A DNA stretch of 62,786 nt, filler included, from Psammoneis japonica (GCA_008632985.1; 4 parts of 4 records of this genome joined end to end with filler, not necessarily neighbours in it), one strand, 5' to 3'; numbered from the whole stretch's first letter, positions 1,184 to 59,930 are shown. Notes: generated from the sequence alone by a model not told the origin. Translations and numbers: made by a program.

Positions 1184-1210
1184 CTGACAGTTCTCCTTCT
1201 CTTTTCGGTT

Positions 1211-16072: not shown

Positions 16073-16168
16073 ATGCAATGCAAACTTGGCATAGAATGCA
16101 GCTTCTTGCATCTTCACGTCACAGATCTCCTGGCACTTCTGTTGCCTGAAAACACACTCTAGCAACTT

Positions 16169-17200: not shown

Positions 17201-17254
17201 CTCGGCGACATGAAACATGCATCCCAATTTATGCCAAGCACAGCCTGATCTTTT

Positions 17255-36618: not shown

Positions 36619-37328
36619 AAGGGAAAAGTCTCGTATTAAATTATGTTGTCATACAGTAGTAGTGCTAGTAGCCCCAATTTCATATAAATGTTATTACTAT
36701 TTCTACTCCAGAACCGCCATTTCCTAGAGGCTAGAGTGCACTCTAGCTACGCGCTAGGGAGACACAAAACTCAATGAGCCTAGAACCCCGTCTTGGACGT
36801 TTTCGCGTGGTCTCTCCTTGTCGCTGAGCTGACGTCGACTTTTTGAGACTGCTTTCTGTTTGCGTTGTGGAGAGATGGTCCAGGTGAATGCATCAACTCC
36901 ACATTGAATGTGATTCCAAGCGTAATGCTCTACATAGTAGCCCTTTCCTGCAAATGGTATTGGCAAATTGCGTTCATTGGAGCCAACGAGAAGGACTTCA
37001 GAAACAGAAGTACAGCACCTTAGCTCTGTTTTCACGTGTTTTCTAATACCATTACCGTGTGTATCACAGCCTATGTTCGGTTTGTTACCATTTAGAGCAG
37101 ACATTGGTGTTTGTAGGTACCAAGGGCTTGGGTCCAACACAAAAGCCTTCCAAAGACAATTCCTGAACCACTGTGCCCCGCGCCAATCTGTACCGGTACA
37201 CATTGCAAATCCAACCTTGTTTTTACAGAATATGTGCGCAGAGCATGTATCCGATGTCAGTAAGCAAATGGGTCCAATCCATTCCCTTCCAAAGTATTCT
37301 AGTATGGACTCTCTTGGAGCTGCGTTCT

Positions 37329-38108
37329 TCAGTGTTGCGTGCACTCCCGCTTCTGTTTTTTCGCAGGTGGCTTCTTTTCCGAAGCAGCACTTTGTTCATC
37401 TTGAGACGAAACAGTACCTTGCGTGGGATGATGAACTGGGATTGGATTCACCATCGACGAGACTTTCGAATTCACCATCTCAGCCTCCAAAAATGCATCA
37501 GCGGCGAAACAGGCGGCACTTGCCGTGTCCAAAGAAAAGCCACTTGAGGATCGAGCAGAAGAGCTTCCTGCAGCCCGTGGGGGACCCAACACTGCTACAC
37601 TGGGGGATTGTTCAGTTTTGAGAACGCTCACGTCCTCGTCACCTCCTTCTTTATTCACATTTATTTCCTGATTGAGCTCGGAATCATCGTCTCTGCTTTT
37701 GGATTTCGAATCATCACCTCCGCTTTTGGGTTCCGGGTCGTGGATTACGGCTGCCGGAGCTGCATCGCGCAGGTTTTGCAAAGCACTGGTGAACCGCGCA
37801 AGGATCTCATTGTCATTGAGATCTTGAGTGCCAGCAACACAACCTTTCACAGCAGACACAGCAGACACCAAAGTCTGAGGGTTACTCTCATAAAAAGATC
37901 GTAAAATTGGTTCCAGGCCTCCAACATAAACCTCAATCGAGTCGTAGGGGTACTGCGGCTGTTCATTACTTTTTTTTGAAACGTTGCTTCTCCTTACAGT
38001 AGCTGATGAGTTTGTAGTAGTCACTGACAACGCGTCGTCCTCCGATGCCACCCACGAATATCGAAACATATCGCCCTTCGCCAAGCTTCGGACACCGCAA
38101 ACGCTCAT
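37329..38108 (-). CDS. Hypothetical Ser-rich protein (TpA-intact copy of a duplicated pair)
   Basis: Open frame; close inverted paralog at 51358-52143. Confidence 0.55.
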   Translation of the reverse strand: MSVCGVRSLAKGDMFRYSWVASEDDALSVTTTNSSATVRRSNVSKKSNEQPQYPYDSIEVYVGGLEPILRSFYESNPQTLVSAVSAVKGCVAGTQDLNDNEILARFTSALQNLRDAAPAAVIHDPEPKSGGDDSKSKSRDDDSELNQEINVNKEGGDEDVSVLKTEQSPSVAVLGPPRAAGSSSARSSSGFSLDTASAACFAADAFLEAEMVNSKVSSMVNPIPVHHPTQGTVSSQDEQSAASEKKPPAKKQKRECTQH

Positions 38109-38158
38109 GGTTTTCAACGACCTCGATCAAACGACATACTGTACACTGTACAGTATGA

Positions 38159-38886: not shown

Positions 38887-38943
38887 GCATTTTAGCAGTG
38901 CAGGGGGAAGGACAGATGTGCCCACCTCCCAACTCACGCAGCC

Positions 38944-41157
38944 TTGAACGACCTGAGTGCCAATGGCATTCTTTGCAACTCGTCGCCGCCTGTCGAGGCC
39001 GCAGCAGCAGTTGCAAACTTTTTGACGAAGGGAGCGACATGCACCAACCCTCATTCGGCTGTGGCTGCTGTCCCTCCTGCAGCCACCGGTGGAGCACCGC
39101 CGGCACCCCCAAAAACACACCATGACAAGTGGATGAGCCAAGGAGATCACTTGGGTGGGGAGTGCGCGAATTTATTTCGCCAGCACGACACCACCGTCAC
39201 TGCTCCCAAGCCGGCCGCTGCGCTGCTCGAGCACATCATCGACTCGAGTGATGTGGTGCCCAAAGCCTTTTTGGCTCCAGTGTGGCAAGGCGCAGGTTGT
39301 CGTGTCACCTGCATCCACCGGCCCTCAGTTCACATCAGAGACCCGGTGGAGACCTTGCCGTGGGACGGTCGTGTGTTTTGTTTTCAAGGAGACGTCCTCC
39401 CCGGTAACTTCATCTCCATTCTCGAGATGCCCAACACTCCGTTCGATGCCGTGGGGCCTCAGGTGGTGCCTGCGGTTGCCAACATGGCCGCCCCAGAAGG
39501 TGCCTTGGCAGACGAGAACGATCCAATGCCGCCTCAGACCGACGGCGCCCCGGATGCCGACACGATCTACGTCCGTCGTCTCGTGCAAGTGCCCCGCGCA
39601 TGTCTGCATCTTGTGTTGACTCGGGATCTCACCCCACTGCAAGCATGGCACGAACTGGCCGGAGCGATTCAAAACGACGGACGCGTGGGGGACTTGAGCC
39701 CTCTCATTGACTGGCTGCATGCGGCCCTCACTGCCGACACTGCAGCGAATCCCGATCCGGTTCATTGCCTGGGCGACCGTGCCACCGCGTCACTGCCACT
39801 CGCGGTGGACGCCAGATTGCAGGAGCATCGTTGGCGTGCGTTGTTGCAAGACCCACCCACCTTGGATGCAACGGCCGTCGACAACACCGACCGGGTGCTT
39901 GCCTTCACCAACACAGTGCGCGCCAATGCAGCACGCGCTGAAGCAATCCGCACTGCAGCCGCGGCCGCGGCCTCAGCTCCAAAAACGCTGGCTGAAGCTT
40001 TCCCTCAAACTGCACCCGTGTGGCTCTTGCTCTCAAGCGTGCCGGATGATGCAGCCCCACCTGCACTGCACCACACTTGGGCCAATGGCACCAAGGCCGA
40101 GCGGCACCTGTGCTTTGCTCGCGCCTTGGAAGCCCGTGCCCAAGAACCCGATGCCGCGTCTTGCACAGCACCCATGGTTTCAAAGGAGTTGTGCAAGATG
40201 GCGTTGCAAGGAAAGGTGGCACCCCACGTGCACCAAGTGAACGACTTGACCGCCGGCGTCTCCCCGTTTGCTTGTGGTTTCTTTCTCGCCGGCCAAGGCT
40301 CCACCGTACAAGTTCGGGCCGAACGCTGTGACCTGGCGTTAGTGGGCAACTTGACGCCCACCGTTGCAGAGCAAGAAGAGTTCCGGACCAAGGACACACC
40401 TCTGCCCTCGTCCACCTGCCATTGTGGGAGTGTGCTCCAAGCTGCCAGCTTGGTCTTGGATGTCATCCAAGGGTCGAATCATCCCCATGCGGTGGCGTTC
40501 CGGCAGTTCTGCTTGGAAGACTGGCGGGACATGGTCGACTTGCTCGAGCAATCAGGAGCGTTGCCAGCCGAAGGAAACGCACTCCCCCGCATTTGTCGTG
40601 AGGCACAGATGCTCATGGGGGTTCATCTCCGCAGGCTCACGCAAGGCAGCATACCCCGAGTGCCCGATTACACGGCGGTGGCGTGCAAGGTCTTGCACGG
40701 GCAATTCTCCCTGTTGGCACAATTGCCCCGTCATTTGCTCGGCCAGCCAGACCAGGCGACTAACCCCCAGGCGAGCTTGACCAGTGCCAGCAACAGTGGC
40801 ACCCCTTCCGCAGCAGCTGCCGCGGCTGGGCGTCGCGACCCTGGTGCAGCTGTTACGAACCCCAACCCGGTGCGATCGTGGCCAACTGCCTTCGCACAGG
40901 CCGGGATTCGCCTGGCCACGGTACGACGTTTCGCGCCTCGAACCACAGACTTGAGTGGCACCGCGTGCGAGGTGTGCCTGTCGCACCACCTCAAAGGAAC
41001 ATGCTTTGCCAACTGTGAGCGCAGAGGCATGCACCGAAACCTCTCGCCGCGAGAGAGGATGGCTGTGAGCGCCTTCGTTCGCGACCACGTGTCCAACCCC
41101 CAGGAAGGTGGCGCCCCAGCGCCGGCACCCACGCCGGCACCGGCGGCATCCACCTGA
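38944..41157 (+). pseudogene. Gag-like ORF1 of the YR retrotransposon with C-terminal Cys/His knuckle
   Basis: 737-codon frame, Ala/Pro rich, CLSHHLKGTCFANCERRGMH near the end; almost no Tyr. Confidence 0.7.
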
Positions 41158-41208
41158 GGACAGGGGCCGGCTGGCCCTAGAGCCGGCCTGCAGCCCTCCT
41201 CTGCTCAC

Positions 41209-43233
41209 TTGCCAGATCCGCATCAGCAGCACCCACGCAGCAACGAACTGGGCAAGTTGGCAGAGGAACATGTTAAACTCTTGCGCACTTTAGGCTGGAG
41301 CCAGTTCGTTGCACACCTGCGCAGGGAGCCGTGTCTGGCTGAGAATGTTCAGCAGTTGCCCCATCCTGCTGCGAAGCTTCTTTCTAGTCTCCGCAACGAC
41401 GGAGCTCCGGTGCAGTTCTCAACGGAGGACTGGACATCAGACCAGGTCCGGATGGCCACCGAACGTGGTGGCCATCCGTCCACCAACGAGCACCTGGGCT
41501 TCCTCGAGTCGGACATGGCGGACATGATCCAGAAGCGACACTGGACAGTCTTGCCATGCCACGAAGCCTGCAAGCTGCCCCACCTGCGCGTCTCACCAAT
41601 GGGCGTGGTGCCGCAATGCGACCGCCGCCCGCGCACCATCGTGGATTACAGTTTCTACGGCATCAACGACGAAACCGTGAAACACGCCCCTCCGGAAGCC
41701 ATGCAATTCGGTCGCGCGCTTGACAGGTTCTTGCACAATGTCTTCCGCGCCAATCCGAAACACGGCCCAGTGTACATGCTGAAACTCGACCTCTCGGACG
41801 GTTTCTGTCGCGTGGGGCTTCGCCCCCAGGACATGCCCAAGCTTGGGGTGGCCTTCCCAGTGGGCCCGGGCGAGGAACCGCTCACAGCGCCACCTCTCGT
41901 CCTGCCCATGGGCTGGACGGAGAGTCCACCTTTCTTTTGTGTTGGAACAGAGACTGTAATCGACTTGGCAAACAGCTGCGTGCCTGCAGCTTGGGACCCT
42001 CCGATTCATCCACTTGAACAAGCGGCGGCCACACCAGCACCCCATGACGATACCTTGCGGATCGATGTGCCGCCGCCTTCTAGTGCAACCCCAGCTAGCC
42101 GCGTCTCACGCCTTCCTTCGCCCGCCGCTCTTCATCGCAGACGCCAACGCGGCTCCCAGCCGTTGGAGCACTTCGATGTCTATGCAGACGATGAGACATG
42201 CGCGGCACAAGGTTCAAAAGCGCATCTCAACAAGTTGCGTCGTCGCCTCCTGCATGTCAATGACCAAGTCTTCCGTCCCAACACAACTGCCGATGCACAC
42301 TGGCACCGCGAAACTATCTCACTGAAGAAACTCCTCAAAGGAGACGCGTCGTGGTCGACAGTCAAGGTCATTTTGGGCTGGCTCATTGACACCCTAGCGG
42401 GCACCGTGCAATTGCCGCCGCATCGACGGCGATGCCTCCTGGACATGCTTGCCGACACCATCCCGCGCCGCCGCATGTCAAACAAGCATTGCCACAAACT
42501 CATTGGCGAAGTGCGCAGCATGTTGTTGGCGGTTTCTGGCGGTGCCGGCCTGCTCTCCAATCTCCAGCACTCGCTCGCCACCTCAAGTGACTCCCGCACT
42601 CGGATCAACCGTCATGCGCGCCGTCAACTCCAAGACTTGCATGCCCTGGCCGTCGACATTGCTTCTCGTCCCACAAGGCTTGCCGAGCTGTTCCCTGCCG
42701 CCGACGGGCACTGCTGCGGTGCATGCGATGCCGCCAAGCCAGGTTTTGGTGGCGTGTTGTTGCCAGGCCCCGGTGACGACTTCCCTCCCATGGCATGGCA
42801 AGTTCTGCTGCCACCGGACCTGCAGGCTGCCATTGTTTTGGACGACAACCCCGCTGGAACAACAACTGACTCCGATCTCGAGCTAGCCGGCACAGTGCTT
42901 CAAGAAGCCGTCGTCGGCATTGCCGTCGATGTCAGGGAATGCACGGTCCACACGTGCTGTGACAACACCCCGGCCATCTCTCGGCGCGAAAAAGGCTCGG
43001 TCACCACCGACGGTCCCGGCGCCGACACATTGCGGACCGGCAGTCTCCAACAACGAAACTCCGACACGTCTCCCGCTTCCATTGCACACCTGGTCCAGCC
43101 AATCTCCTCGCCGACACGTGCTCCCGGAATTTCACCACACCCTCTCACCTCCTTGCAACTCTCACTCGCCTTGCTCCACAGACGAAACCTTGGCAAATGC
43201 TTCACCCGCCGCCCGACATCGTTTCTTCACTGA
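41209..43233 (+). pseudogene. RT + RNase H ORF of the YR retrotransposon
   Basis: SPMGVVPQ, RPRTIVDYS, MQFGRAL, KLDLSDGF, LPMGWTESPP, YADD, ILGW, CDAAKPGFGG, SDLELAG and CDNTPA. Confidence 0.92.
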
Positions 43234-44350
43234 TCTCCGCCTTGCGACGGCAAAGGCCCACGAAGCTGTCACTGCTGAGCGAGCCCGTGCCACGGACACC
43301 GTCTGGGCCAAGTGCTGGTTGCCTTTCTTGTCCAACATCGGAATCGAAGACCCTCTCCTCACCTGTGTCCAAGACAAAATCCCGATGCTCCGAGTCTTTG
43401 CCTGTCACCTTAGGGATGGACGCCTCAGCCGCAGCGGCAACCCAATCTCAGCTCCGCATGTTCATGACGAAGTCCTTCACGTCGCGAAGACGTTCACCGA
43501 ACTGGGGGCCCCGGACCCGCATCTAACGCCACACGGCATGATGGACCCTCGCCTCACTTGCCTGCACAGTGCATGCTCAAAAGACGATCCACCTCCGAAC
43601 CGAGTTGAGCCTCTCCCGATTCAAACAGTGCACCACGCACAAGCCCTCGTCGATGAATCTTCCGCGCTTGACAACGCCATCATTGACATGTCCTGGATTG
43701 GCCTCTTCTGTCTCTTGTGACCCGGCGAGCATTGCAAAAGCAAGGACAACGACCCCTTGGCACCAGCCGACATCAAACTGCTCATCAGACAACGAGCTCT
43801 CGACCACTTGACCTGTCCCTTGCGACACCTGTTTCTCGCTACACACAGCAGCATCACCTTCGACACCCAGAAGAACCGGGAGCGCGGCGAGACAGCAGGT
43901 CACACCCGAAGCTCCCACTCGAAAGCCTGCCCGGTTCTCGCCATCGCTCGCCGTGTACACCACCTGCATTTGAACGGCGCCAATGCTGACACCCCCCTGT
44001 GTGCCGTGTGCCTCGGTGCGTGTTGGGGTCATGTCACCAGCCGCGCCATTGCCAAGATGCTCCAAGTGTCGGCTGCCGCCCTGCCACACCTCGGATTCCT
44101 GCCAAAAGACATCACAGCCCGCAGCCTCCACGCCGGTGGCGCCATGGCCCTGCTGTGCACCAAAGCAGACACCGACATCATCCGTCTCATCGGCCGTTGG
44201 AAATCCGACGCCATGTTTCGATGCCTTCACGCCCAAGCGTTGCCATTGATCGCAGGACTCTCCACCAAGATCCTGAACTGCGGAAATTTCACGTTGCTCC
44301 CTGGGTCCGACATCCCCCCGTTGCACAAAACATCATCAATCAAGCCAAAG
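43197..44350 (+). pseudogene. Tyrosine recombinase ORF, inactivated
   Basis: FCLL*PGEH (Arg->TGA at 43718), QKNRERG, CPV, RSLHAGGAMAL and IGRWKSDAMFRCLH (catalytic Tyr now Cys). Confidence 0.9.
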
Positions 44351-44993
44351 CACCCACCAACTGACGAGTGCACGACTTCACCCACCCTCAGCTCCGCTTC
44401 TGGCCCATCCCCTTCTTCCTTGTCGGCCCTCCAAGAGTGGCGGATCGGAGGCGGTCTCGGTTGCTGGTGAGCCTGCAGAGGGCAAGAAACCCCAGTGGAG
44501 CACTGACACCACCAACTGCCACCTCCCAACTACAGTGGGACGCACCCCCCAGCAGCGTTGGTGGCGAATGGCCATTTTGGCAGCGCAGGGGGAAGGACAG
44601 ACGCACCCACCTCCCAACGCACGCAGCCTTGAACGACCTGAATGCCAGCGGCATTCTTTGCAACTCGTCGCCACCTGTCGAGGCCGCAGCAGCAGTTGCA
44701 AACTTTTTGACCTTCCACACCCGCCCAACCGCCTGATCGGAGGCGGTCTCGGTTGCTGGTGAGCCCACAGAGGGCAAGAAACCCCAGCAAAGCGCTGACA
44801 CCACCAACCACTGCCTCCCAACTGCAGTGGGACGCACCCCCCAGCAGCATTGGTGGCGAATGGCCACCGGCAGTGCAGCACCGCCGTCTTGTAGTTCGGT
44901 CCTCGCGAAGCCCCAGCACATTGCCAGCCATGTGTGCATGTGTGTTTTTTAAACTTGAATAAAATATTTTTTTAATTACACACATAAAAATAA

Positions 44994-45736: not shown

Positions 45737-45974
45737 CAAAAAAAATGTCCAGTAATGAAGTGTTGAGAAAATGGAAATGCAGTCGTACGAGTAAGGGGTA
45801 GTTGTCGCGTGCAATTTCGTAGGCAGTGCGCGCGAAATTCGAATCGATTCTGGCGCCGTGTTCAGCATGATGACAGGTTTTTGTTGTCTTCTAGGCGTGG
45901 TGTCAATGCTCTCTGTGGACTGTCTGTTGGTATGCTGTCTGGACAGGTGGGGGTTGATTGAATCGGGGTGGTTC

Positions 45975-46160
45975 AGTGTCTGCAAAGGGACAGACCTGCA
46001 CCATCTTCCCACTGGGGGTCGCCTGGAGCTGATCTGAGAGGCGGGAACACGGGACCCCCTGAGGCAACGGTGGGTTGCCCGAACTGTGGTGACACTCATC
46101 CTCGCATTGACATGGCCACATGCTTCAGAACATGGCTTTTGCCATTTGTCTGATGGTTTC
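45975..46160 (-). mobile_element. 3' end of a CRE/NeSL-like non-LTR retrotransposon ORF
   Basis: KWQKPCSEACGHVNARMSVTTVRATHRCLRGSRVP resembles the KW.KPYS...GYV.ARMS...VRA...CLRGSR C-terminus of restriction-like-endonuclease LINEs. Confidence 0.6.
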
Positions 46161-46785
46161 AATGCTGTCTTTTGCGGAGACCATTAAAAAAAAAATGGGT
46201 GTTCATGGTCGTGCTGCACATGTGACATTTCGAGGTGGCCGGGTAGAAAATGAACAGAGAAAGGAACTGCATGTAAAAAAATGTTGCATTTTTTTCTGTT
46301 TAGAACACACACAATTGGGCTTGAAATGTCATGTCAAATGTCTGTGTTTGCAGCCTCAAGTTGTGTGGTTTGAGCTCAAAACCAATCTTCAAAAAGCATT
46401 TCCCCCGCTCGTCACTCCCAAAGGGCAGAGACATTAAAATTGAATGAATGCACCACTCTCATGTCTAAAGAGGAGTGGACAACATTGAACATGAGTGGGA
46501 GCTGTCTGCTTGTGCCACAGAGAGGGCTGTTTGTCAACTGAGGTTGCCCTGTGGTCGTGACTCTGCAACGGCAACTCTCTCACACAGCCAAAAATGAAGT
46601 GAAAAAGGCACTTGACTGTGACACAAGATTGAGGAATTTGAAAATCTGCAAGTCCCGTTGTCACAACTTTTCCCACCTTGTTTCATTGAGGAGTCTGCTG
46701 CACAGCTGCAGCATGCTTTTTTCGCTGCACATGTGCATTTTTGGCCACGCCGCATCATCTCCATGGTTTTGCATTCATCAACATT

Positions 46786-46875
46786 GTGTCAAGTGGAAGC
46801 TTCAATTCTGACACTTTCCACACCTTGGCTGTGTCAAGTGGAAGCTGCAATTCTGACACTTTCCACACCTTGGCT
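46786..46875 (+). repeat. ~44 bp tandem duplication
   Basis: TGTGTCAAGTGGAAGCT.CAATTCTGACACTTTCCACACCTTGGC twice. Confidence 0.9.
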
Positions 46876-47156
46876 GGCATTTCTTGCCTCCATTTCAAAA
46901 CTTGTTGCTGTGCACATGCTGCTGTTTTGTTGTGGAGCTCTTTTTGTCATTGTTGTTTTGTGCCCTCCTTGTTGCTGCAGAGTGGGGCTTGTCTTTGTAA
47001 GCTGGCTTTTGCTGACAAGGAGTCAGCTTGGCTGCAATCTCCTCCACAGTTGGCAACATGTCTCTAAAGACATGCTCTGATGTGCCAGAAAGCCGAGTGT
47101 GATGCCCTTGATGCCAGGCTGACTCAACCTTTCTTTCTCCTCTCCTCTTCATGTCT

Positions 47157-47404
47157 GCACCTTGCGGCTGCCATTGTTGTTTCCAAATGATCCCCCCTGC
47201 ATCCCACTCCCCCCCCCCAACAAACTCCCAAAATCTGGGAAGACACCTCTCTGACATTTCCAGCAGTGCTTGCATTGTCAGCAACCATGTGCAGCAGCAA
47301 CAATCTTGGTGGCTGGCACCTTGCAGCTGCCGTTGTTGTTTCCAAATGATCCCCCCCAACAAACTCCCAAAATCTGGGAAGACCCCTCTCTGACATTTCC
47401 AGCA
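47157..47404 (+). repeat. Direct duplication, ~160 bp period
   Basis: GCACCTTGCRGCTGCCRTTGTTGTTTCCAAATGATCCCCC...CAAACTCCCAAAATCTGGGAAGAC...TCTCTGACATTTCCAGCA at 47157 and 47316. Confidence 0.85.
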
Positions 47405-48727
47405 ATGCTTGCACCCCCCCCCCCCCCCCCCATCAAAGCCTTTTCAGCATGACAGCATTCACTTTGTCAAGGACGGCAGTTTGCTGTTGTCCAAGCCGCT
47501 GCAAAAGTGTTGCTTCCCAGCAACGTCAGCCCAAACCCAAGGTTGTGTGCCCGGCTGCTGTGTGTCTGCAGTGCGCGCATGTGCTGCTCACAGCTGGCAT
47601 TGTTGTGCATGACAGCCATGTGCTGTCTCCATTTTGACTGTGATGTGCAGTGCTTGGCTTGTCACTTTGGGGAGATTGTGTCAAACCAGGCAGGCACTGG
47701 ATGCTGTTCCTTGACACTCAAGAGACATGCTCCTCTCACAGAGATGTCAAAAACTTCTCTTGTTCTCAAGCCTCAAAATGGAGGCATGCTGCAGCCCTGA
47801 GACAGCTGCAAAGCATGGCTGTTTTAAGTTGTGAGGAACTGGCTTGAGCATCAGCAGTGCACAAACATGGTGCTCAACAAGGATGAGCACCACTTGTTGC
47901 TTTGCCATTGCTTTCATGACTTGCGCTTTCATCAGCCACACATGGTTCTTTCTCATGCTCTTTTTGCACACACGTGGACCTGTGACTTGGTGATGCACAG
48001 AACATTGCATTGGATCAACACAGTGGTGATCAAGAAAACAACAGCATTCAGACTTCCACACCTCTGTGCTGGGCAGGGGGGGATGTGGTGATGTCATGGT
48101 TGGCACATGGCAGATTTCATGTCTTGCTTGTTCATCACATTTTTGCACAAATGTCCACATCCATGTGGGTGCTTGGCATTGCAAACTCAACACACATGAA
48201 ACCATGCACAACTGGGCACAGCTCTGCACTCCTCTCCAGTGACACAGGGGTGAGCATTCCCTTGAGATGAGCAAGTCCCGTGAAGCCAAGAATGTGGCTG
48301 GGAGCAAGTGGGAAACAGCCTCTGCACTCTGGTGCAGCAGAGAATTGGTGGATCGATTGACATTTCTAAAGGCCATCACAAACTGTGCAAGGTCAGAGAA
48401 ATGTTGCAACTTGCACTGCCAATGCCCAGCACCCAAACCACCATGACCACTGAAGGGGAACAGCCATTCTGACTCAAAAGGAAATTGAAGAAAAACTTGG
48501 CTGTGTGTCTTGCCAGGTTGCACTCTTCAATGATTCCAAAAGGGGAAAATTTCACTGATTGGCAAGTGTGTCATTGAAGCAGTCAATGCTTTTTGTTGCA
48601 TTTTAGCAGAAGAGAGCCTTTCTTGTCTCACACATTGTTTTCATGCACTGGCCACCCAGAACAAGTTGATCATGTGATTGAACCAGGAGATGGGCCAGAC
48701 TTGACCAACTGCACCCATGATCCCGCC

Positions 48728-49070
48728 ATGACAATGCCAGAAACAAAGTTGTTGCAGCCTTGGGGTGAGAGGATTTGGATTGTTGATGGGCCAGAAATTG
48801 GCATCAGTGGCTGCCCTCTCACAACACAAATGGCCGTGGTGCACATGCACAGTGGTGGTGCATGGTCGTGGAGTCTAACTCCTTGTTCAGCAGAGTTGGC
48901 ATGAGAGATTGATGGGTGATGTGGCAAAGTCTGGTTCATTGTCGCACCAAATCAAAGCCATCACTTGCATCTCAAGGAATGGTGGTCAGAGCAGTGTCCA
49001 CAAGCCAAAATTCTTGCCCTTGGATTGGCACGCTCACTTGTGAAGAGCTGTGCTTGACTTTGAAATTGTG
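48728..49070 (+). pseudogene. DUF4336-family gene fragment
   Basis: LQPWGERIWIVDGP, TQMAVV, GGAWSWS and FIVAPNQSHHLHLKEW, with stops and frameshifts. Confidence 0.65.
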
Positions 49071-49169
49071 TTGGAAAGACTGCAATGCCAACGCCAATCT
49101 CACACTCACATCACTGTTGCCCCATTGACACTGCAAGACATGTGCAGAGATTGTGACAGGCCCTGCAGG

Positions 49170-49780
49170 GATAGAATGTGGTGCCGGGGCTGCTGTGACT
49201 TGGCATTGTTGTCCTTGTCTCTAAGTGCAGTGCTGCATTTGCAATTCGTTCAGCACACACTTCATCCTTTTCACCAGTGTCCACCTTTTCACACCGGCTG
49301 AACTTCAGTGATCTAGCAGAAATGACAAAAGCAACCTTAACATGGGACTCTTGAATTCACCAACAAGTCTTCGTGGTGGTGCAGACATCCTGGAAACAGT
49401 GTCATGGACGCTCACGTCAGGTCCACTTGGCACACTAAGTTCACGGGGTGCAGCTGCAAGTGTGGAGGTGCCCCTGACGTTGTATCGTCTCAAGGGTTTA
49501 GCTTTTTGGTTGGCTATGGATATTCGGTGCTCGCCATTGGAATAGCCATGACTCGAGCATTTGGAATCAACCTGGCAGATACGTCTTCTCCCTTGACGAG
49601 CGCTGTCATGTTTTATGGATTCCGTTTACTAGGCACGTATCTAGCGTTTCGCACCTTGACGGTGAACATCGAAACGGTTGGATCAAGAACAGCTTGAAAC
49701 GTGTGGGGGGCAAGAAGCATACGACAAGTGGAGGTCCGACGTTAGAGCGAAAATCTTTCCGTTTGTCAACAAAGAACAGA
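49170..49780 (+). pseudogene. Internally deleted duplicate of the DUF1295 gene at 35578-36618
   Basis: Colinear nucleotide match with ~420 bp missing (36088-36505), frameshifts and stop TAG->CAG. Flank similarity continues to ~49925. Confidence 0.92.
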
Positions 49781-50523
49781 AGGGAAACATCTCATATTTA
49801 TGACAATGTCATAGTTCTGGTTCGTAGTTCCAGTTTCATATAAATGATGATACTTTAGTTCTACTCTACCCCACCATTTTCTTATAGGCTAGCTAGAGAG
49901 ACACAAACCTCCATGAGCCTGGATCCTCTACAATAGACTCGTTGTGCCTATCAACCTGTGGAAAGACATGAACAACGAAGTTTGCACTTTTAGGTAATGA
50001 AGGAACCGATGATTCTTGGAAAGACAAGGATACAAAAACGCAACGCAAGGGCGTGAAGACCCGCAGGAAGGTAGACCACAACACCAGCGTAGCGCCAACC
50101 AAATCGATGCGGAGCACGGCTGTACGCCCTGCTTCTCTCTCAAAGATGTTAAAGTCTCTTTGATACCTCTGAGATCGAACTGCTGCTGTCACCATTTCAG
50201 CTGCGACAGATAGAACAACACTATCTCCTATTCTCTTGAGCTTGATGCGGGCGCCAGATGATTTGTCCGCTAAAAAACAATTTCGACCTGTGGACCCATC
50301 CGTCCAAGGAACAAGTCACTCAGTGGTCAAGATTTGGTCGTCCATCAACCTGAAACATAGGGTGCACCGGTGGCAGCTTCACAGCCATCAAAACAAGACG
50401 TTCAGCCCATTGTTGCGCAGTCCGTGGAGCTCTCTCTCTAGAGTGTAGCTCTAATCTTTCTTCCCTTACCAACAACTTGTCACTTTCACGATTCGATGAT
50501 GGCGGACACTCTCTGGTTCCAGA

Positions 50524-51198
50524 TCAAAGTTTCTGAACTTGAAAACTAGCTCGTGTTTGCAGCAGATCGTCTCTCGCAACACTCCATTGGTCTTTGTTGG
50601 CCTCCAGTAGGAACACATACAGCCGTTTGTTCAAAATCGTGGTTGAAACCAAAAAGATAGAATTGTCGGATGGAACGACCACATCGAATTCAAAGTAGAT
50701 ATCCGAACCATTTTTAGCTAAAGACCTGGTGTTGATAAGATTGCCTGACGAGAGTTTCTGTTTTAAGCCATCTCCAATCCGATCCCCAATGTCCAACGAT
50801 CTAGAAAGAGAAAAGGTGCCAACCATTGCCTTTTCCAGTCGTTCTGCGGTTGCAGTTCCTGTCTTTTGATACACAATGACTCGATTGCAGGCGGACGGTG
50901 GCGGTTCCTTGTACGTAATTCTAAAAGCCGAGCCCTGATGAGAACTGCTCAAGCCGTTGATTGCAATAGGAAACCCGCCTGTTTCTTTCTCATCCCATAA
51001 AAGCTCTACTGTTTTGCTTGCAACCGGCTGAGCAAGTAAGCCCCAGGAAGCTGCTCCAGCAGTGGCGACAAGGACATAACGGCGTTGAAGGAGCATGTTT
51101 CGGCATGTAGAAGTTTTAGATGCTCTGCTTTGCAGCCCATTGCTAACAGAACCACTCAGTGTCAATGCAGCTGTGAAGAATAAAACGAAGCGATACAT
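50524..51198 (-). CDS. PsbP-like thylakoid lumen protein
   Basis: Signal peptide, twin-arginine RRYVL lumen signal and C-terminal RLYVFLLEANKDQW...RASFQV. Confidence 0.65.
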   Translation of the reverse strand: MYRFVLFFTAALTLSGSVSNGLQSRASKTSTCRNMLLQRRYVLVATAGAASWGLLAQPVASKTVELLWDEKETGGFPIAINGLSSSHQGSAFRITYKEPPPSACNRVIVYQKTGTATAERLEKAMVGTFSLSRSLDIGDRIGDGLKQKLSSGNLINTRSLAKNGSDIYFEFDVVVPSDNSIFLVSTTILNKRLYVFLLEANKDQWSVARDDLLQTRASFQVQKL

Positions 51199-51357
51199 CC
51201 GAGCGGAGAATGTGCTTCAGTGATGTGAAGAGGCTGTTTGACTTGAAAGAGCTCTTGTCGTCGCGTTGTGCTGGGGCTTCGCGAGGACCGAACTCTAAGA
51301 CGGCGGTGCTGTCGCGTCGAAAACCTAACGACATTTGAAAAACGAAAACCGTTGGCC

Positions 51358-52143
51358 ATGAGCGTTTGCAGTGTCCGAAGTTTGGCGAAGGGCGATACGT
51401 TTCGATGTTCATGGGTGGCATCGGAGGACGACGCGTTGTCAGTGACTACTACAAACTCATCAGCTACTGTAAGGAGAAGCAACGTTTCAAAAAAAATGTC
51501 TGGCAATGCACAGCCGCAGCACCCCTGCGACTTGATTGAGGTTTGTGTTGGATGTCTGGAACCAATTTTACGATCTTTTTATGAGAGCAACCCTCAGACT
51601 TTGGTGTCTGCTGTGTCTGCTGTGAAAGGTTGTGTTGCTGGCACTCAAGATCTCAATGACAATGAGATCCTTGCGCGGTTCACCAGTGCTTTGCAAAACC
51701 TGCGCGATGCAGCTCCGGCAGCCGTGATCGACAACCCGGAACCCAAAAGCGGAGGTGATGATTCGAAATCCAAAAGCAGAGACAATGATTCCAAGCTCAA
51801 TCAGGAAATAAATGTGAACAAAGAAGGAGGTGATGAGGACGTGAGCGTTCTCAAAACTGAAGAATCCCCCAGTGCAGCAGTGTTGGGTCCCCCACGGGCT
51901 GCAGGAAGCTCTTCTGCTCGATCCTCAAGTGGCTTTTCTTTGGGCACAGCAAGTGCCACCTGTTTTGCCACTGATGCATCTTTTGAGGCTGAGATGGCTG
52001 AGTCGCGAGTCTTGTCAATTCTGAGTCCAATCCCAGTTCATCATCCCACGCAAGGTGCTGTTTTGTCTCAAGAGGAACAAATTGCTGCTTCGGAAAAGAA
52101 TCCACCTGCAAAAAAACAGAAGCGGGAGTGCACGAAACACTGA
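51358..52143 (+). pseudogene. Inverted duplicate of 37329-38108 carrying TpA mutations
   Basis: Same protein with YSW>CSW, QYPY>QHPC and VYV>VCV; frame still open. Confidence 0.8.
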
Positions 52144-52527
52144 AGAAGAACATTGGCATTGTCAATCCTGTGTGATCGTGGCCACCAAAACTTTTCTGGC
52201 GTGGCAAAATTGGCAACAATCACAACTCCAACTCGTTGGTGTCTTGCTGCCAGCAGCACGTTGCATTTGCACGCCATTTGGAGCCTGTTCAATTGCCACT
52301 GCTGTGGCTCTTTACTGCCAACAGTGGGGCCCTGTGCCTGAATCATGGGCATCGGAATCACCACAGGGAATCATCAGAACGCCGAGCAAGAAAACATTGA
52401 AGTGAACATTTTTTTCCAATGAGTTGCCGGAAACGGGTTGCTTGGTGACAACTTCTGTTGTGATGGGCCCGCCACCGCCCAACTCCATTGCCACCACCAC
52501 CCTTCCAGCAATGCATGCAATGCCTTT

Positions 52528-54770
52528 TTACAATTTGTCCAGCAAGTCACTGGGATCAGGAACCTTTTCACTCAAGCCTTTTTGGATCCGAGCTTGACGT
52601 GTGATCTCCTCCTCTTCATTCGATGGCACCATCTTCATGCCAGAGTGTGCACACGAGCAGTGAGCATGGCCCTTGGTGGCCAAGCACAAGGCATCGGCCA
52701 ATCCAAAGGAGCGTCATGCAGGCAAGGATGCTTGGAGTGAATTGGTTGTCACAGTGCTTTGAGTGTCCTCGATGGTGGCACCGCGTTCTCCTGGAACCGA
52801 GTGAACTCCATTCAACGTTCCAGCGGCTCCCAAAATTTCGGCTCGGCACATGGGTTCCACCAGATGTGGTTGCGCCAGCAAGAAGGCACCCTTCATGGCA
52901 CGAGCCGCAGCTGCCACCATCGAACCTGGACGATGGTGAACTGCATCTGAATGGAATTTGGTGTCCATCAAGTCGAATCAAACACCTCGCAAAGCCGAGT
53001 GGACCAGTGCGCCTTGGCGTGTAACTTGTTGAAAGGCCACAATGATGTTCTCTTTGGCATCTTGAGGGATCTGAAGACCAAAGGTCGAGTCCACCAAAAG
53101 ACAAGTGGGTTGACTGGCGTCGTTGTCTTCTTTCTTGTTGCCAAGTGGCTGGGGACCAACAGACCAGATTCAAGCATCATTGCTGCTCCAGCCAAAGTCA
53201 CTTGCCAGCCTTGATCCGAGTTGCTTGGGATTCAGACCCATCAAATCTCCTGACGCCATGGCTTCTGCCAAGTCTTCGCCCAGTGGAGAAGCCTTGATGT
53301 AGATGCGATTGTGCTTGTCATTGCTCTTGGCCAGTGCCACTTCCGAAGAATCTTCATGGACGGTCTCGTGACAGGCAATCATGGGTTCCGAAAGGACGAC
53401 TTCAATGCCCGTGCTGTCCACAACGGAAGATGCCAAAACTTGAATGTGCAACTCTCCGGCTCCCGCCAAAGTGCATTGTTCCATTTCAGGATCTCGGAAA
53501 AAGATGGCCGTCGAGTCGGCATTGACGACTCAATGCATTCCCGCCACCATCTTGGTGAGGTTTTTCTTGTCCTTGGGTTGAACCGAATGGTGCAAAATGG
53601 GAGTGACCGACAGAGTCATGTGTCGAATCAGTTGAGCATCTGGTGCACTTGCCAAAGTGCCCGACTTGTTCAACACTTGATCCAATCCTTCCAAGGCAAT
53701 CAATTGACCCACACTTGCCGAGGGAATGGCAAACATTTGTTCACCAATTCCACAAAGCTGGATTTGCTTGATTCTTGCTTGTCCTTCGCTGCCATCTGTT
53801 CTCAAGGCACGGACCACATCACCCGTCTGAATCGTGCCACCAAAGACGCATCCAAAGGCAAGCAGGTTTTTGCTCTTTTCACTGGCAGGTGCCATTTTGG
53901 AAATGCACACAATCAAGGGCGCTTCGGGATCGCAATCGGCAATTCCTTGACTGGAAGGGTCTTGAAGATCTCCCGAGCAGAGCAAAGGAGCTCGAAGACG
54001 CTGGGCTTGGACACTGGCAAAGGCACATGAGCAGCTGCCATGTCGACAATGGCATCGGCAGTGGGTGGCCAGGTCATCATGGCCTTCTTCAACAGCTTGC
54101 GAGGATCCAAAGTGGATGCGTCTTCGCCGTCTCTGAGAAGACGAATCCGAGACTTGGAAGGAACCAGCTTGGTCAAGGCCTTGGAGACAGTTTCCAAATT
54201 TTCTTCCGGTGTTGGTGTGTTGCCTGTCAAGGTGGGTAGAACTCCAGCGGCTCAGTTCATTTGGACAACAGGCCTCAAAATGTGCTTGATGAAATTCTCT
54301 CGCTTGGACAATGTTTTGTGAATGACTTGTTCGGAGGCAGAAGAATCTTCCTTTTGGAACAGGGGCAAGAACGAGTCGATGGAACAGCTCCATCCAAAGT
54401 GGCCACTTCCGAAACATGCCAATCCTTCTTCCAAGCTTGCACGTTGATCTGGGAAATTGTTGCGTTGATGTGTGGCAATGAATCCACCAATGTCCTGAAT
54501 GACAAGTTGAAGTCGATCATGAATCTCTTTGGGACTCAATTGTTGATCGACAATGAAGCGATCGACCTTGTTGATCATCAGAATGGGATGGACCCCTTCA
54601 CGAAGGCTTTGAATCAAGACTTGTTCTGTCTGGACGGCCTTGCCTTCGAGGGCATCCACCACCACCACCAAGGCTCCATCCAAGACACGCAAGGTGGCCG
54701 TGACTTCGGCATTGAACTCAATGTGGCCCGGCGAATCAATCAAGTTGACAGTCAACGGAACCATGGCAGC
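52528..54770 (-). pseudogene. Divergent eEF2-like translational GTPase, disrupted
   Basis: VNLIDSPGH, VQTEQVL, INKVDR, FGSG..GW, ISKM, KSGTL, AGAGELHI, ETV, KSNDKHNRIY, HSDAVH, EPM and the C-terminus LLDKL*. Several frameshifts and stops; G1 motif not found. Confidence 0.88.
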
Positions 54771-55314
54771 GTTGCCAACAAATTCTTTGTCAGATGACTC
54801 TTCCTCATTCTTGATCTTGTTGGACTCCCGTTGGGCTTCCTCGTCATTGGTGCTGTTGCTTCCGTGTTGTTGATTCCAGAAACAAAGGCACTCTTCCGCG
54901 GATGCCTTGCGAGCTTCGTGTCTCATTGCGCATCCATGGTGTTCTGGAGCCTGAATCAGCACTCCTCCCAACAACGGCCAATCTGCCATGCCACGTGAAT
55001 TGAGCTTCAAACCGCTGTGGAACCGTTTCTGGCTCGAGCTCCATCCACCAGTCGTGATGGAATGCGTTTGAGGAGGAAGGATGACTGGAGATGTCTCCTT
55101 TGTGTTCACTCCAAAAAGACAGTCTTCTCCAGATGCACGCAGCACCAAGCAAGTGTCCAAGGATTCGCAGTCCTTTGGACTGAAAAAAAAATTGAAGCAT
55201 TTTGCTCTGCTTGAAGCAAAACAGTGTCAAGTTGAGAACAAGGTTCGTGTTTCCCACCGCATCTATGAAGAAGCGTCCAAACTCTACACCAAAGGGCTCC
55301 TTGTAATGCACGAG

Positions 55315-55560
55315 TCAGAGTGACACCAATGGATGTCCCTGCAGTGCATCCAACCACACCCCACACAGTGCAGCCATGGCGAGCCCACGTCCCCCCTCTT
55401 GTTTGAACTGTCCGGCAAAGGTTGCAGCGGTGGCAGGTCCTCCAATGGCTGCATTGCTCGCGACCAAGACGTGTTTTATTTGCATCTTGATGCACATCAG
55501 TTGACTCAAAACAAAAGACCCAGCAATGCAACCCCAACATGCACCAGCAGCGCAAGCAAG
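55315..55560 (-). pseudogene. DUF819-like membrane protein fragment
   Basis: VLVASNAAIGGPATAATFA motif. Confidence 0.6.
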
Positions 55561-55679
55561 CTAAACACCAGGACACCCCCTTGTCCCTCTCATCGCGCAC
55601 ACACATCCCAGGATGAAACAAGTGCCTCAGATGATTCTACCTCCAACTTGGAGAAGTTGTGCCAGATGCCGGTTTTTTC

Positions 55680-58384
55680 TCATTTTTGCTGCAGCTGCAC
55701 TGGGGACCTGCTCCATCGAACACAGACAACCGATGGCTGCATCTGGCAGTGCAGCATCCTGTGCCAGCGACCTGCCATGGCAGGATGACTGATGGCAATG
55801 CTCCTTGACAGTGCGTCAAGTTTGCCTTGCTCAAAGACATTTCCCTTTAGATGCCGGTCTGGAGCATCCCTCTCTGGAGTCTTGTAACCAGCTGGCAAAA
55901 AGCCCGCAGAGGGTGCCAGCATTGACTGGCAATCATTGAGTTGGTTGATTGGCCAGTTGTTTGGACAACAAAGTGACCAGGTGGTGTCTGTGAAAGTGAC
56001 AGCTGCACTCTGATGGAAGGGATTCCATCCCTCATTGCAAGTGGTGTTGCACAAATCCATCAAGTTTCTGTGTGGCTTGTTCTGTGAGTTGTGGATGTGC
56101 TGCATCGTTTTGGCATTTCCACATGCCCTGAGGAATGTTGAGCAGCTGTTTGATCCAGTGTTGCACCCATTTGGCACCTGTTTTGTGGGAGGGGCACAGA
56201 ATCCATCAAGTTCCTGTGTGGCTTGTTCTGTGAGTTGTGGATGTGCTGCATTGTTTTGGCATTTCCACATGCCCTGAGGAATGTTGAGCAGCTGTTTGAT
56301 CCAGTGTTGCACCCATTTGGCACCTGTTTTGTGGGAGGGGCACAGACAGAAGTGTTTGTCTTGCAGTTGGGACCACTCTCTCATGAGACAGCCAAGTTTG
56401 CCTTGCTCAAACACATTTCCCTTTTAGATGCCGGTCTGGAGCATCCCTCTCCGGAGTCTTGTAACTGGCTGGCCAAAAGCCCACAGAGGGTGCCAGCATT
56501 GACTGGCAATCATTGAGTTGATTGATTGGTTGGTTGCTTGGATGACAAAGTGACCAGGTGGTGTCCGTGAAAGTGACAGCCACACTCTGATGGAAGGAAT
56601 TCCATCCCTCATTGGAATGGTGTTGCACGAATCCATCAAGTTCCTGAGTGGCTTGTTCTGTGAGTTGTGGATAATGTGCTGCATCATTTTGGCATTTCCA
56701 CATGCCTTGAGGAATGTTGAGCAGCTGTTTGATCCAGTGTTGCACCCATTTGGCACCTGTTTTGTGGGAGGAGCACAGACAGAAGTGTTCGTCTTGCAGT
56801 TTTGACCACTCTCTCACGAGACAGCCTTCCAGGAGCCTGTCCCACCCGACGATGCACTGGGAATGAATGGCTTGTCAAAGGATCAGACTGGCAAAGTTGT
56901 TGTGTGCAATGGGGATGTTTTGGTGCTTTCCATGCCTGAAGATGGCTCTGCATTGCTTGGGAAAACCCTGAACATCATGTTGTTGTTGTCCATCCATTTG
57001 ACACACATTTTCTGCAGCATTTCACTCCAGCCACTTTGCCATGGCTTTCAGGCATGCCAGAATGTGTTGGACATCTTCATCATCTTCTTCACAGCATGGG
57101 CAGTGGGAGCAGTCTTGCATCTTCCATCATTGGAGCCACTTGCCTGCCCCACAGATGCCAGTTGCATGTTTTGCGAGCCAGCGTCAGTGTCCGATTCCCA
57201 GTTGGTCAGCCACTTTGTCAATCGCTTCCTGGTCAACTTTTCAAATGCCCTGTCATGAGAAATGTTGTTTTTTGTGCACCTGGCAGTGAACCACTTTGGT
57301 GCCACAAGTGCAACCCAGCAGTCATTCCAGAAGTTTGGCGGACATTTTGCACTCACCTGTGCAGACCAACCACAGTTCATCCTTGATGTTGAGCTGTCTT
57401 GGGCCTGGATTTGATCAGGCAACCTCTTGCCATTTGGCTTTTGCAAGGTTGTCCATTTGCATGTCAAGTCTTGCCCATCAATCCAGTTTGCATCTTGCAT
57501 TTTCCGTCTTGATGCCTTTTCACCCACCCAAACTTCCACGTGAGTTTGCTTTGTTTTGGCTTGGTTTTTGCGGCACTCAGCAGGTCAAAGTTGTTGGAGC
57601 ACAGTGCAACATGTTTGTGGGAGTTGAACGTCTTGTTGAGTGCCTGATCCCCACCACATGCCACTTTGATCTGAGTTTGTTTTTTTCTGCTGAACGTCCT
57701 TTTGTTTTGCTGGGCCCCACTGCTGAGAATGGTGGGCACATGATGCACAAAGCAGCAGCCAAGCTAACCCAACAAGCATGACTCAGTTTCAGTGCTGCAA
57801 ATTCGCCGTTGGCATGCAACAGCCGGAAAGCATGGAAACCACCACACCATGGTGACTCTGCAGTTGCCATTTTCTCAATGGCATCACCTTCAAGAGCCAC
57901 AACAATCAACAATGTTTTGCAAGGAGTTGCCCCAATGCTCCAAAGGTCTTGCATGGCTTGTCCAGAAATTGACTGCTCACTCCAATTTCCAGTTTGTGTT
58001 TTTCAAGAAGCACACAGATGAGATCACCAGTGACAGTTTGTTGCTTGCCGTGTTTGACAAATGCTTTGATGTGTTTCTTGCACATGGCAAATTTGATTGA
58101 CTGGAAACCCAGACCTTGACTGACAACCCAAGGGAGTGAGCGGCACAATCCAGCTCTTGGGAGGCCATGTCAGAGAGCAGGAGCTTTGATGCATCTGCAC
58201 TTTTTGGAGTCAAGCGTGAGTGCCAGCAGTGGGCAATCAAGCACTTTCCACATTTTTTGTGTGAGAGAAAGCCATGCATCTGCTTTGGCGAGGTGGCCAG
58301 TGTGGACTTGGTCAGCCCATGCCTCCATTTGTTTGCACAGGGTTTTGACTGCTTTGTTGCAGTTGCCATCTGGGGCCAACCAAA
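55680..58384 (-). mobile_element. Decayed non-LTR retrotransposon (post-RT / RNase H region) with internal tandem duplications
   Basis: LAPDGN, ADAWLSLTQKMWKVLD[Y>C]PL and WVQHWIKQLLNI.QGMWK[Y>C]QN motifs. 55815-56200 is repeated at 56390-56780; 56053-56200 is repeated at ~56201-56345. Confidence 0.65.
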
Positions 58385-58484
58385 NNNNNNNNNNNNNNNN
58401 NNNNNNNNNNNNNNNNNNNNNNNNNNNNTTAATTAATTAANNNNNNNNNNNNNNNNNNNNNNNNNNNNNNNNNNNNNNNNNNNN

Positions 58485-59930
58485 ATCTCTTTTCCTCCCC
58501 CTTGAGGTTGTCAAGTGCAGCCTGAAGCACTGCCATGATGTGAAGTGCACGATGCCAAATGGACACATTTTTTCACAGTCGGCAGCCAGATTCTTGTCAT
58601 CCTGATCAGGCAACACTGACTTAAAGCCATGTGGATGATTGACAACAGCAGACAAAATGTCAAGCGCATCTTGTGCAACTGTCTTTACATCAACGTCATC
58701 TGGGTAACCAAGGTCGGTGCAAAAATGCTGTGCACTTGAGTCGAATCCCAACAGTGTGTCGAGTGCAATTTGTCACTGACAGAATCCAACTCTTCAACTG
58801 ACATCCCATCATCTCTTTTTCTTCAGAAAGATGTTGTTTCTTCTTTGCTTGTTGTGCTTTGTCACTGTTGAGTGTGTCTGGATCTGTGTTGGGTGGCATT
58901 TGGTGTGGTCAAGTGCAGTTCTTCCAAATTTTGTCTTGACAGATCCACTTTGCAGCCGCACTTCACAGAGTCATTGCCAGTTGCGCGTGGTGGACAAAGG
59001 TGCCAATGGGGCTTGCCAAATGGTGACAAAAAGAAACATTTGTTGTGAGTTTTCCACCCTTCTCAAGGCCACATGAGCACTCCGTTTTGCACAGATTCTC
59101 ACTTCGTCAGCAACAACATTGTTCTCCTTTGCAACATTTGAAATGCCCCGACACTTCCACACTGCTTCTTCAACTCTCTGCCCATGATTTGGACCCCCTC
59201 ATCATTGACATTGAATTTTGCATTGTGGTGCTCTGCCACTCTGCTGGCATCCATTGATTCTGAACGCAAGAATCCAAGAACAGCCAATGCATGTGTTTTG
59301 ATGCGAACAATTTTTGGACATCAGACATGATGGTTTTTTGCACTTCGGCCCTCAGGGAGCTTCGCAGGTGGGTTGGCAAGGTGGGCACAGGTTGCAGTGC
59401 CAAAAGCCAAGGATTTTCAAGAAGCTGTGAATGTCGTCGTTGAGCAACCAGGCACGTGACAATTCTCATTCTTTTTGTTTTCCCTCCAATGAAATGAACT
59501 TCAACTTGGTGACGTGTTGTGCTGTTCACACAGAAATCTGCACCAAATTTCGAACAATCAATTCCAGCCACAAGCCACACCCAACAAGGAACCTGCATCC
59601 AAGGATCCGGGATCTTTGTTGGATGCCGCACACTTGCAGCAGCAGCAGCAGGGACCTTTCTTCATTTCAAGATTTTTGCCTGGGTGTGGACAGACTGCAC
59701 ATCAAGCAGATTTTGCTTGCCGCACTCCATCACCATGCATACACAGGTGCTCACAATGATTGATCATGTTGTTTCCATGCGTGGTCCAGTCGGTGGTCGG
59801 CGGGTGTGGGATGACGAAGGTTCAACGCACCAGCAGTCACAAGATGGCGGTGGAGGCTGCACTTGTTCATCGCCTTGGCAAACTCAAGGCTTGGTTGGTT
59901 TCATCCATTTGGGATTCCCAAAATGGCAAG
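58485..59930. other. TpA/CpG-depleted degenerate block, unidentified
   Basis: Composition as in the other mutated blocks; no motif recognised. Confidence 0.5.

Follow-up and report, generated by a model that had tools for sequence, protein, structure and literature searches.

Probable region-bound erosion of TpA dinucleotides in a duplicated gene at a domain border in Psammoneis japonica

Two inverted copies of one open reading frame (ORF) in the genome of Psammoneis japonica (GCA_008632985.1) differ in that one of them carries TG or CA at places where the other carries TA. They raise the question of which copy has changed, and whether the pairing of the two repeats or the location of each decided that one was altered and the other spared. 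The window, i.e., the whole stretch of DNA that was analysed, comprises 62,786 nucleotides, a length that includes the filler by which 4 parts of 4 records are joined. The two copies, termed X and X', are situated in the window as follows:

51356..52147, plus strand: X', read here as the derived, hypermutated copy; a 261-codon ORF of an orphan family with its ATG at 51358, a TGA stop at 52141-52143 and an open frame
37325..38110, minus strand: X, the better-preserved copy of 259 codons, in DNA of normal TA content (TA observed/expected ratio, o/e, 0.5-0.86)

Local alignment of X' with the reverse complement of X yields 740 matches, 45 mismatches and 8 gap columns (93% identity), and the homology extends from 2 bp 5' of the ATG to 4 bp past the stop. 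The two proteins are 86% identical, and both frames are open. Transversions account for 13 of the mismatches and transitions for 32, of which 25 belong to two dinucleotide classes. At 10 sites TA in X is replaced by TG or CA in X', and the reverse occurs nowhere; these sites are 51407, 51504 (beside a 6-nt indel), 51520, 51527, 51545, 51588, 51726, 51819, 51875 and 52057, and on the plus strand of X' they represent five A>G and five T>C changes. CG in X is replaced by TG or CA in X' at 15 sites, with a single site in the reverse sense (51398, ATG versus ACG), where it may be X that has lost a CpG. The one-sidedness is significant for TA (10:0, binomial p=0.002), for CG (15:1, p=0.0005) and for the pooled classes (25:1, p=8e-7). 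Expressed per base of X, transitions affect 10/36 of TpA (0.278) and 15/92 of CpG (0.163), compared with 7/657 elsewhere (0.011), and each of the first two rates differs from the last with a Fisher p of ~6e-10.

The pattern is thereby confirmed as real and far beyond chance. The original prediction for this locus had described ten TA to TG/CA changes in the 51-kb copy, several CG to TG/CA changes and the conversion of four out of five Tyr residues to Cys or His. All ten were recovered at the same sites, the "several" amount to 15, and the protein alignment bears out the Tyr replacements (Y>C, Y>H, Y>C and Y>C). The absence of reverse gains, also predicted, holds for TA and fails for CG at the one site given above, and the full alignment, from which a context bias might have been missing, displays a strong one in both classes. 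At the codon level the copies differ by 34 nonsynonymous and 10 synonymous changes, which indicates that at least one of them is evolving without constraint. The frame of X' has stayed open, but the process seldom makes stops: TAA and TAG are removed, and TGA is created only from CGA. In our reading, X' is a paralogue in decay, its better-preserved counterpart being the ORF at 37329-38108.

Read data were available as three runs from one sample, two of which contain part of the stretch. At position 37969, where X' has 6 letters more than X, a contig of run X2 has 7 more than the window and shows one other difference; the insertion may thus be kept in another allele of X or in a third copy, and the X of the window may carry a deletion.

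The direction of change in X and X' was assessed from protein outgroups. A word-based search revealed no near-length homologue of X (0 matches among 3790 candidates), and an exhaustive search provided five distant ones, the best of which matches over the full length with 33% identity (E value 4.5e-11). The outgroups have Tyr or Phe, and never Cys or His, at three of the four Tyr positions that changed (2/5, 5/5 and 5/5 aromatic), the fourth being uninformative. When the 34 amino-acid differences are judged by identity to the outgroups, 15 favour the 37-kb copy and 7 the 51-kb copy, with 12 ties. These comparisons support the polarity proposed originally, namely that the 51-kb copy has probably lost TpA.

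A second duplicated gene in the window serves as a further internal control:

35578..36618, plus strand: intact DUF1295 gene (steroid 5-alpha-reductase-like, with a Pfam match), the reference for DUF1295'
49179..49926, plus strand: DUF1295' pseudogene, with CGA>TGA and TCT>TGA stops and ~420 bp missing

The intact 346-aa ORF has 150 homologues (best identity 57%), and all nine of those with legible organism names, three of them incomplete, read as diatoms. In the first block of the aligned pair, TA>TG/CA changes number 8:1 and CG>TG/CA changes 11:2 (loss in DUF1295' versus the reverse sense); the corresponding values in the second block are 5:2 and 2:2. When the nonsynonymous differences were polarised by 40 homologues, 16 favoured the intact copy and none the pseudogene, in accord with the direction proposed for X'. 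Among the polarised changes are GTA>GCA/ACA, CTA>TCA, TCG>TGG/TTG, CGA>TGA and, at a Tyr that 40/40 homologues share, TAT>TGT. The duplicated segment (35579-36787 / 49179-49926) runs ~170 bp beyond the stop, and 36087-36505 is missing in the copy. In both cases, X and DUF1295, the duplicated segment opens no more than 2 bp from the start codon of the gene copied, and X' and DUF1295' might be retrocopies, i.e., processed copies, or else ORFs captured by a transposon.

The altered copies are associated with a larger compositional structure. A 1-kb profile reveals at least six TpA-erased domains, at ~12.5-18, 22.6-24, 29-30.5, 38.9-44.7, 45.9-49.45 and 51.5-59.5 kb, with a weaker one at 0.5-2.7 kb, and together they make up 36-48% of the window; 30.3 of the 62.8 kb is affected when a 500-bp criterion is applied, and hand-set domain cores total 22.5 kb. 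TA density is 4.7/kb in these cores versus 43.1/kb in normal DNA. The TA o/e is 0.02-0.27 in the domains versus 0.5-0.86 in normal stretches, with TG and CA raised to 1.4-2.2. For domains compared with the rest, the o/e values are 0.12 versus 0.61 for TA, 0.61 versus 1.00 for CG and 1.59 versus 1.17 for TG/CA, and AT, GC, AC and GT are the same inside and outside. CpG o/e falls to 0.10-0.65 in five domains, and the GC-rich domain at 38.9-44.7 kb is not depleted (0.8-1.0). Since the DNA at 39-44.5 kb is TpA-erased yet CpG-normal, the loss of CpG and the loss of TpA are separable. The two domains adjoining the altered duplicates, and the island between them, are the following:

45900..49450, no strand: second TpA/CpG-erased domain, TA o/e 0.03-0.14, CpG 0.10-0.33; right edge inside DUF1295'
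49451..51479, no strand: TA-normal island between the two domains, containing a PsbP-like ORF at 50524-51198 (minus strand)
51480..59500, no strand: TpA-erased domain, TA o/e 0.02-0.14, TG/CA 1.4-2.2, CpG 0.15-0.65; left edge inside X'

Both duplicates are cut by these edges. X' straddles the left border of its ~8-kb domain, and its first ~130 bp are spared: TA conversion is 1/6 before 51480 and 9/12 after it (p=0.043). Likewise, in DUF1295' conversion is 7/12 for TA up to ~49450 and 1/10 beyond (p=0.031), and 10/18 for CG up to ~49450 and 1/14 beyond (p=0.0075), so that the right ~60% of this copy is spared. The domain beyond X' continues for kilobases. As the edges fall inside both duplicates, position rather than repeat pairing appears to decide which DNA is altered, and the 37-kb copy would have been spared by its place beyond the TpA-erased domains. 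A further pair of repeats served as a negative control:

38159-38893 / 44987-45736: inverted repeats flanking the GC-rich element, ~750 bp, 84% identical, TA-normal
38900..44700, no strand: GC-rich (60%) multi-copy element, TA o/e 0.05-0.27, CpG 0.8-1.0

Both members of the inverted pair are TA-normal, and their differences show no such bias (4:10 and 6:5). Their contig depth is 1000-4500 versus ~50 elsewhere, which marks them as high-copy repeats. The mutation of X' in dependence on its position is thus supported, as is the view, already put forward in the prediction, that one copy was affected through its location and not through RIP-like pairing (RIP, repeat-induced point mutation).

Two further features provide evidence of direction from inside the domains:

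52531..54992, minus strand: EF2-family GTPase pseudogene with 5 in-frame TGA codons and a frameshift at ~54012, in the 51.5-59.5 kb domain
16155..17290, plus strand: ~190-bp tandem repeat in the 12.5-18 kb domain, in the units of which shared ancestral dinucleotides became CA or TG independently

The GTPase pseudogene, which we take to be EFL1/Ria1-like, has its best homologues among proteins of ~790-1115 aa. Relative to 12 homologues it keeps 330 of 410 conserved columns and none of 7 conserved Tyr residues (3 became His and 4 Cys). Four of its five TGA stops stand at an Arg of most homologues (8-12 of 12) and the fifth at Gln or Arg, and in conserved columns there are three R>H and two R>C replacements. 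A contig of run X1 that spans 53871-54413 shows 18 differing letters in 541 relative to the window and has 2 bases fewer at 54011, the place where the pseudogene changes frame. The contig, ~3% diverged, is a second haplotype or copy, and it would fit a raised diversity in the domain.

In the tandem repeat, adjacent CA<->TG doublets account for 74 pairwise instances, the next class for 13. CA, TA and TG occur together in one column in 5 columns, compared with 1 column in the out-of-domain repeat at 61.2-62.8 kb. The 39-44 kb element, compared with other copies or alleles in the reads, displays transitions at 133 of 149 differing places, and CA<->TG doublets are present there as well. Together, the outgroups, the pseudogenes and the repeats say that the TG/CA state is in all probability derived and arose in place.

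Of the TA dinucleotides that survive in the domain cores, only 7.5% are followed by T, versus 28% in normal DNA, and a 3' A or G is enriched; YTAR makes up 42% of surviving core TA versus 17% in normal DNA, and RTAY 8.5% versus 29% (chi-square p=2e-12). These survivor contexts suggest that TAT may be the best target, although newly created TA could also contribute. In addition, the products are asymmetric between strands in places: the ratio of TG to CA counts is 0.70 in 42.1-44.95 kb, and at 55.5-59 kb CA o/e is 1.9-2.2 versus 1.65-1.75 for TG, the other domains being near 1.0-1.13. A local strand preference of editing, e.g., via the direction of transcription or replication, may be involved.

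The domains contain little that can be recognised by homology. Out of 82 stop-to-stop frames of at least 110 aa tested with Pfam, 7 have matches and 75 have none. Traces of transposons are weak (a Copia reverse transcriptase, RT, matching RVT_2 at E 2e-4, and DDE_Tnp_4 at E 1.7e-4, together with the multi-copy element), and the best-identified contents are host pseudogenes. A short TpA/CpG-erased domain at 29051-30600 lies over the 3' two-thirds of an ORF at 29663-31072 (minus strand) that has a weak, sub-threshold aminotransferase class-III match; this ORF may be a decayed host-gene copy with its 5' part in normal DNA. The window holds 67 ORFs of at least 150 aa, many of them stacked in domains (e.g., 39-45 and 53-58 kb) and overlapping in six frames; only TGA stops are left in the domains, which leads to long spurious ORFs in all six frames.

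The reading that we prefer, with a probability of about three in four, is that a region-bound conversion of TA to TG/CA, accompanied in most domains by CG to TG/CA, has eroded X' at a domain border. It builds on the substitution context, its one-sidedness, the direction given by outgroups and the sharply bounded domains that run through the duplicates. The process acts equally on both strands; TA>TG/CA amounts to A>G on either of them. The trigger, the link to chromatin and the enzyme, which may be an adenine deaminase, are matters that we infer. The domains would be silenced, cytosine-methylated chromatin around transposon remnants and pseudogenes, and their contents (the Copia RT and DDE_Tnp_4 remnants, the multi-copy element and the pseudogenes) fit such putatively silenced DNA. 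The CpG decay would be ordinary deamination of 5-methylcytosine, and the TpA loss an enzymatic deamination of adenine (A>I, read as G) in DNA of either strand, presumably with a preference for TAT over TAA/TAG. CpG decay as known elsewhere is recognisable in the CG>TG/CA changes (15:1 in X', 11:2 in the first DUF1295 block), in a CpG o/e down to 0.10 and in the CGA>TGA stops. However, it cannot yield TA>TG/CA, one TpA-erased domain has normal CpG, and methylation in the window is putative. Diatom transposons are methylated at CG via DNMT5a, as described in the accessible part of PMC9998398.

The TpA component would be of the same kind as the TpA hypermutation of the chlorarachniophyte Bigelowiella natans, described in a mutation-accumulation study (Mettrop et al., bioRxiv 10.64898/2026.01.13.699255, April 2026) and cited here from the available portions of that preprint. 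Two integrated viral regions of B. natans mutate at ~1000 times the rate of the remaining genome, and A>G or T>C changes, every one at TpA, make up 230 of the 231 de novo mutations in the two insertions. The genome contains 124 clusters of 1-kb windows that are TpA-poor, rich in CpA plus TpG and enriched in RT and DDE sequences; an ADAT2-like deaminase is proposed there as the enzyme, its action on genomic DNA being hypothetical (10.64898/2026.01.13.699255). This experiment lends experimental support to the direction and motif deduced for the present window. Like B. natans, as far as those portions describe it, P. japonica exhibits conversion of TpA to TpG and CpA on both strands, TpA-poor domains clustered on a kilobase scale, unaffected neighbours and, by weak matches, RT and DDE transposase remnants in the domains. 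Unlike B. natans, so described, the window has host-gene duplicates and pseudogenes among the altered DNA, and its TA o/e is 0.02-0.14, versus 0.45 for the nucleocytoplasmic large DNA virus (NCLDV) region of B. natans. CpG>TpG/CpA accompanies the TpA loss in most domains of the window, whereas CpG is not mentioned in the preprint text at hand. The window also displays a 3'-neighbour effect and paralogue borders resolved to a few hundred bases. A live mutation rate is supplied by the B. natans experiment only. Literature searches, which lacked most subscription journals, did not find TpA-targeted hypermutation in diatoms or in any organism besides B. natans.

The main rival to a region-bound process is a repeat-triggered defence akin to RIP of ascomycete fungi, in which duplication or repetitiveness would mark DNA for TpA editing, the ectopic copy being mutated and the original protected. 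All the recognisable domain contents are indeed second copies or mobile remnants (X', DUF1295', the GTPase pseudogene, the aminotransferase-like fragment, the weak Copia RT and DDE_Tnp_4 matches and the GC-rich element). RIP itself, the functional analogue, is likewise a hypermutation that destroys duplicated and mobile DNA; its transitions are context-specific and can extend into neighbouring sequence. Its chemistry is different: RIP converts C to T mainly at CpA and thereby creates TpA, whereas here TpA is destroyed and 0/10 sites are in the RIP direction. RIP also alters both repeat copies within the homology, whereas in the window one copy is affected (16:0 for DUF1295, 15:7 for X) and the borders lie inside the duplicates. 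A RIP-like trigger of whatever chemistry is challenged by the domain borders, which ignore the borders of homology and spare parts of both X' and DUF1295', by the kilobases of domain beyond X' while the partner copies are untouched, and by the TA-normal state of the inverted high-copy pair (38.2-38.9 and 45.0-45.7 kb). The main hypermutable region in B. natans is moreover single copy, according to the available text of the preprint (10.64898/2026.01.13.699255). We therefore regard this explanation as unlikely, although it deserves to be taken more seriously than the three that follow.

If X', DUF1295' and the GTPase pseudogene were retrocopies, their RNA or cDNA might have been edited (A>I) before insertion. 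Adenosine deaminases with a 5'-U preference, namely ADAR (acting on double-stranded RNA), ADAT2/3 and TadA, share with the window the A>G outcome and a T or U directly 5' of the edited A; ADAT2/3 and TadA edit tRNA position 34, which follows U33. Their substrates, unlike the DNA proposed here, are RNA, and the 3' preference of ADAR is unlike that of the window, in which T is favoured and A and G are disfavoured. Processed copies are suggested by the start points of the duplicates at or near the start codon and by the end of X' just past its stop, and a 5' U preference is called typical of RNA adenosine deaminases in the Discussion of the preprint (10.64898/2026.01.13.699255). Conversion is, however, graded within the copies and continuous with unrelated flanking DNA, the tandem-repeat units diverged to CA or TG after duplication in place, and CpG>TpG/CpA is impossible by A>I editing, while CGA>TGA stops co-occur with the His and Cys replacements; editing before integration is accordingly improbable. 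We give slightly less credence still to a reversed polarity, in which the 37-kb copy would have gained TA and CG from a TG/CA-rich ancestor. X is without a DNA outgroup, and C>T at CpA, which makes TpA, is the RIP direction in fungi (PMC2621366, in the part consulted). Against this, the outgroups are aromatic at the Tyr sites, 15 net CpG gains would be required, the composition at 37 kb is that of ordinary window DNA and that at 51 kb belongs to the abnormal domains, and the process is polarised as a loss in DUF1295 and in the GTPase. The least probable of the explanations is an artefact or a cause other than mutation, such as misread modified bases, assembly error, selection on codon usage or GC-biased gene conversion. 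All reads come from one sample, and TA>TG/CA raises GC as biased conversion does. Yet independently built run contigs match the domain sequence letter for letter at 46586-47241 and 52118-52476, the in-frame stops of the pseudogenes leave no room for selection on coding or codon use, and the control dinucleotides do not change between domains and the rest. GC-biased gene conversion was rejected: CG>TG/CA lowers GC, X' has 15 GC>AT changes at CpG, and transitions in other contexts are rare, at the 0.011 per base given above.

Some points weigh against the region-bound process and have to be set beside its support. Every run that contains the stretch derives from a single sample, probably the one that was assembled, so that the sequence has one source. 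The lack of an outgroup for X at the DNA level leaves protein outgroups of 27-33% identity, and 7 of the 34 sites favour the 51-kb copy. The polarity of DUF1295 and of the GTPase is one of amino-acid changes, in which purifying selection on the intact copy biases the mutable lineage. The separability of TpA and CpG loss means that one silencing state need not explain both. Finally, all identifiable domain contents are duplicates or transposon remnants, with which the repeat-triggered process, unlikely as we hold it to be, is compatible.

With respect to the data, the contigs of run X2 cover TA-normal genic parts only, and the gap in domain cover is a contig hole that was not used as evidence. 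Differences between contigs and window were listed individually for 40 of 154 places. The best database protein identities for proteins of the window are 54-63%, which rules out B. natans as the source. Identical gap figures (44 N, 12 bases, 44 N) occur three times, at 29075-29174, 58385-58484 and 61115-61214, two of them inside or at TpA-erased domains. The out-of-domain repeat mentioned above is the last feature of the stretch:

61159-62786: ~325-bp tandem repeats encoding DUF11/DUF7507-type repeat domains, TA-normal, reaching the end of the window

The GC-rich core is flanked by short direct repeats (38888-39026 / 44573-44711), and the core at 38.9-44.7 kb with its flanks may form one large element bounded by terminal inverted repeats. 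No Pfam match was obtained for its long frames; for a 751-aa frame the best value in a protein atlas was 0.85, without a family, and was not usable. The inverted repeats had also been considered as part of a segmental duplication together with X and DUF1295, a possibility ruled out by the depth that marks them as high-copy repeats.

TpA hypermutation is a kind of process already in print for one alga, and the window represents a second, distant lineage with added features. So far a single preprint, on a chlorarachniophyte, has documented a mutational process that turns A:T into G:C at one dinucleotide and only in chosen domains; in the window the signature is deeper, sharply bordered and adjoining host genes. 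Paralogues that cross a border, presenting the same sequence inside and outside a domain, fix the direction, context and reach of the process without an assumption of foreign origin, a control that was missing from the B. natans experiment. Tentatively, and with somewhat less than even confidence, we propose that TpA-directed DNA editing may be a chromatin-domain-bound silencing system common to distant algae of the stramenopile-alveolate-rhizarian (SAR) group, a diatom-like stramenopile here and the rhizarian of the preprint. Such a system would erase ~90% of TA from whole domains in the target order TAT > TAC > TAG/TAA, would spread a few hundred bases into adjoining sequence and halt at active genes, and would act beside CpG methylation, separably from it. 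If this proposal is true, border-straddling pairs such as X and X' would serve as natural clocks and polarity controls. The domains also carry a warning for annotation, in that Tyr is systematically turned into His or Cys and Arg CGA into a stop, and gene finders over-call ORFs. The occurrence of the signature in a diatom-like genome suggests either an old, widespread system among marine algae or a repeated origin.
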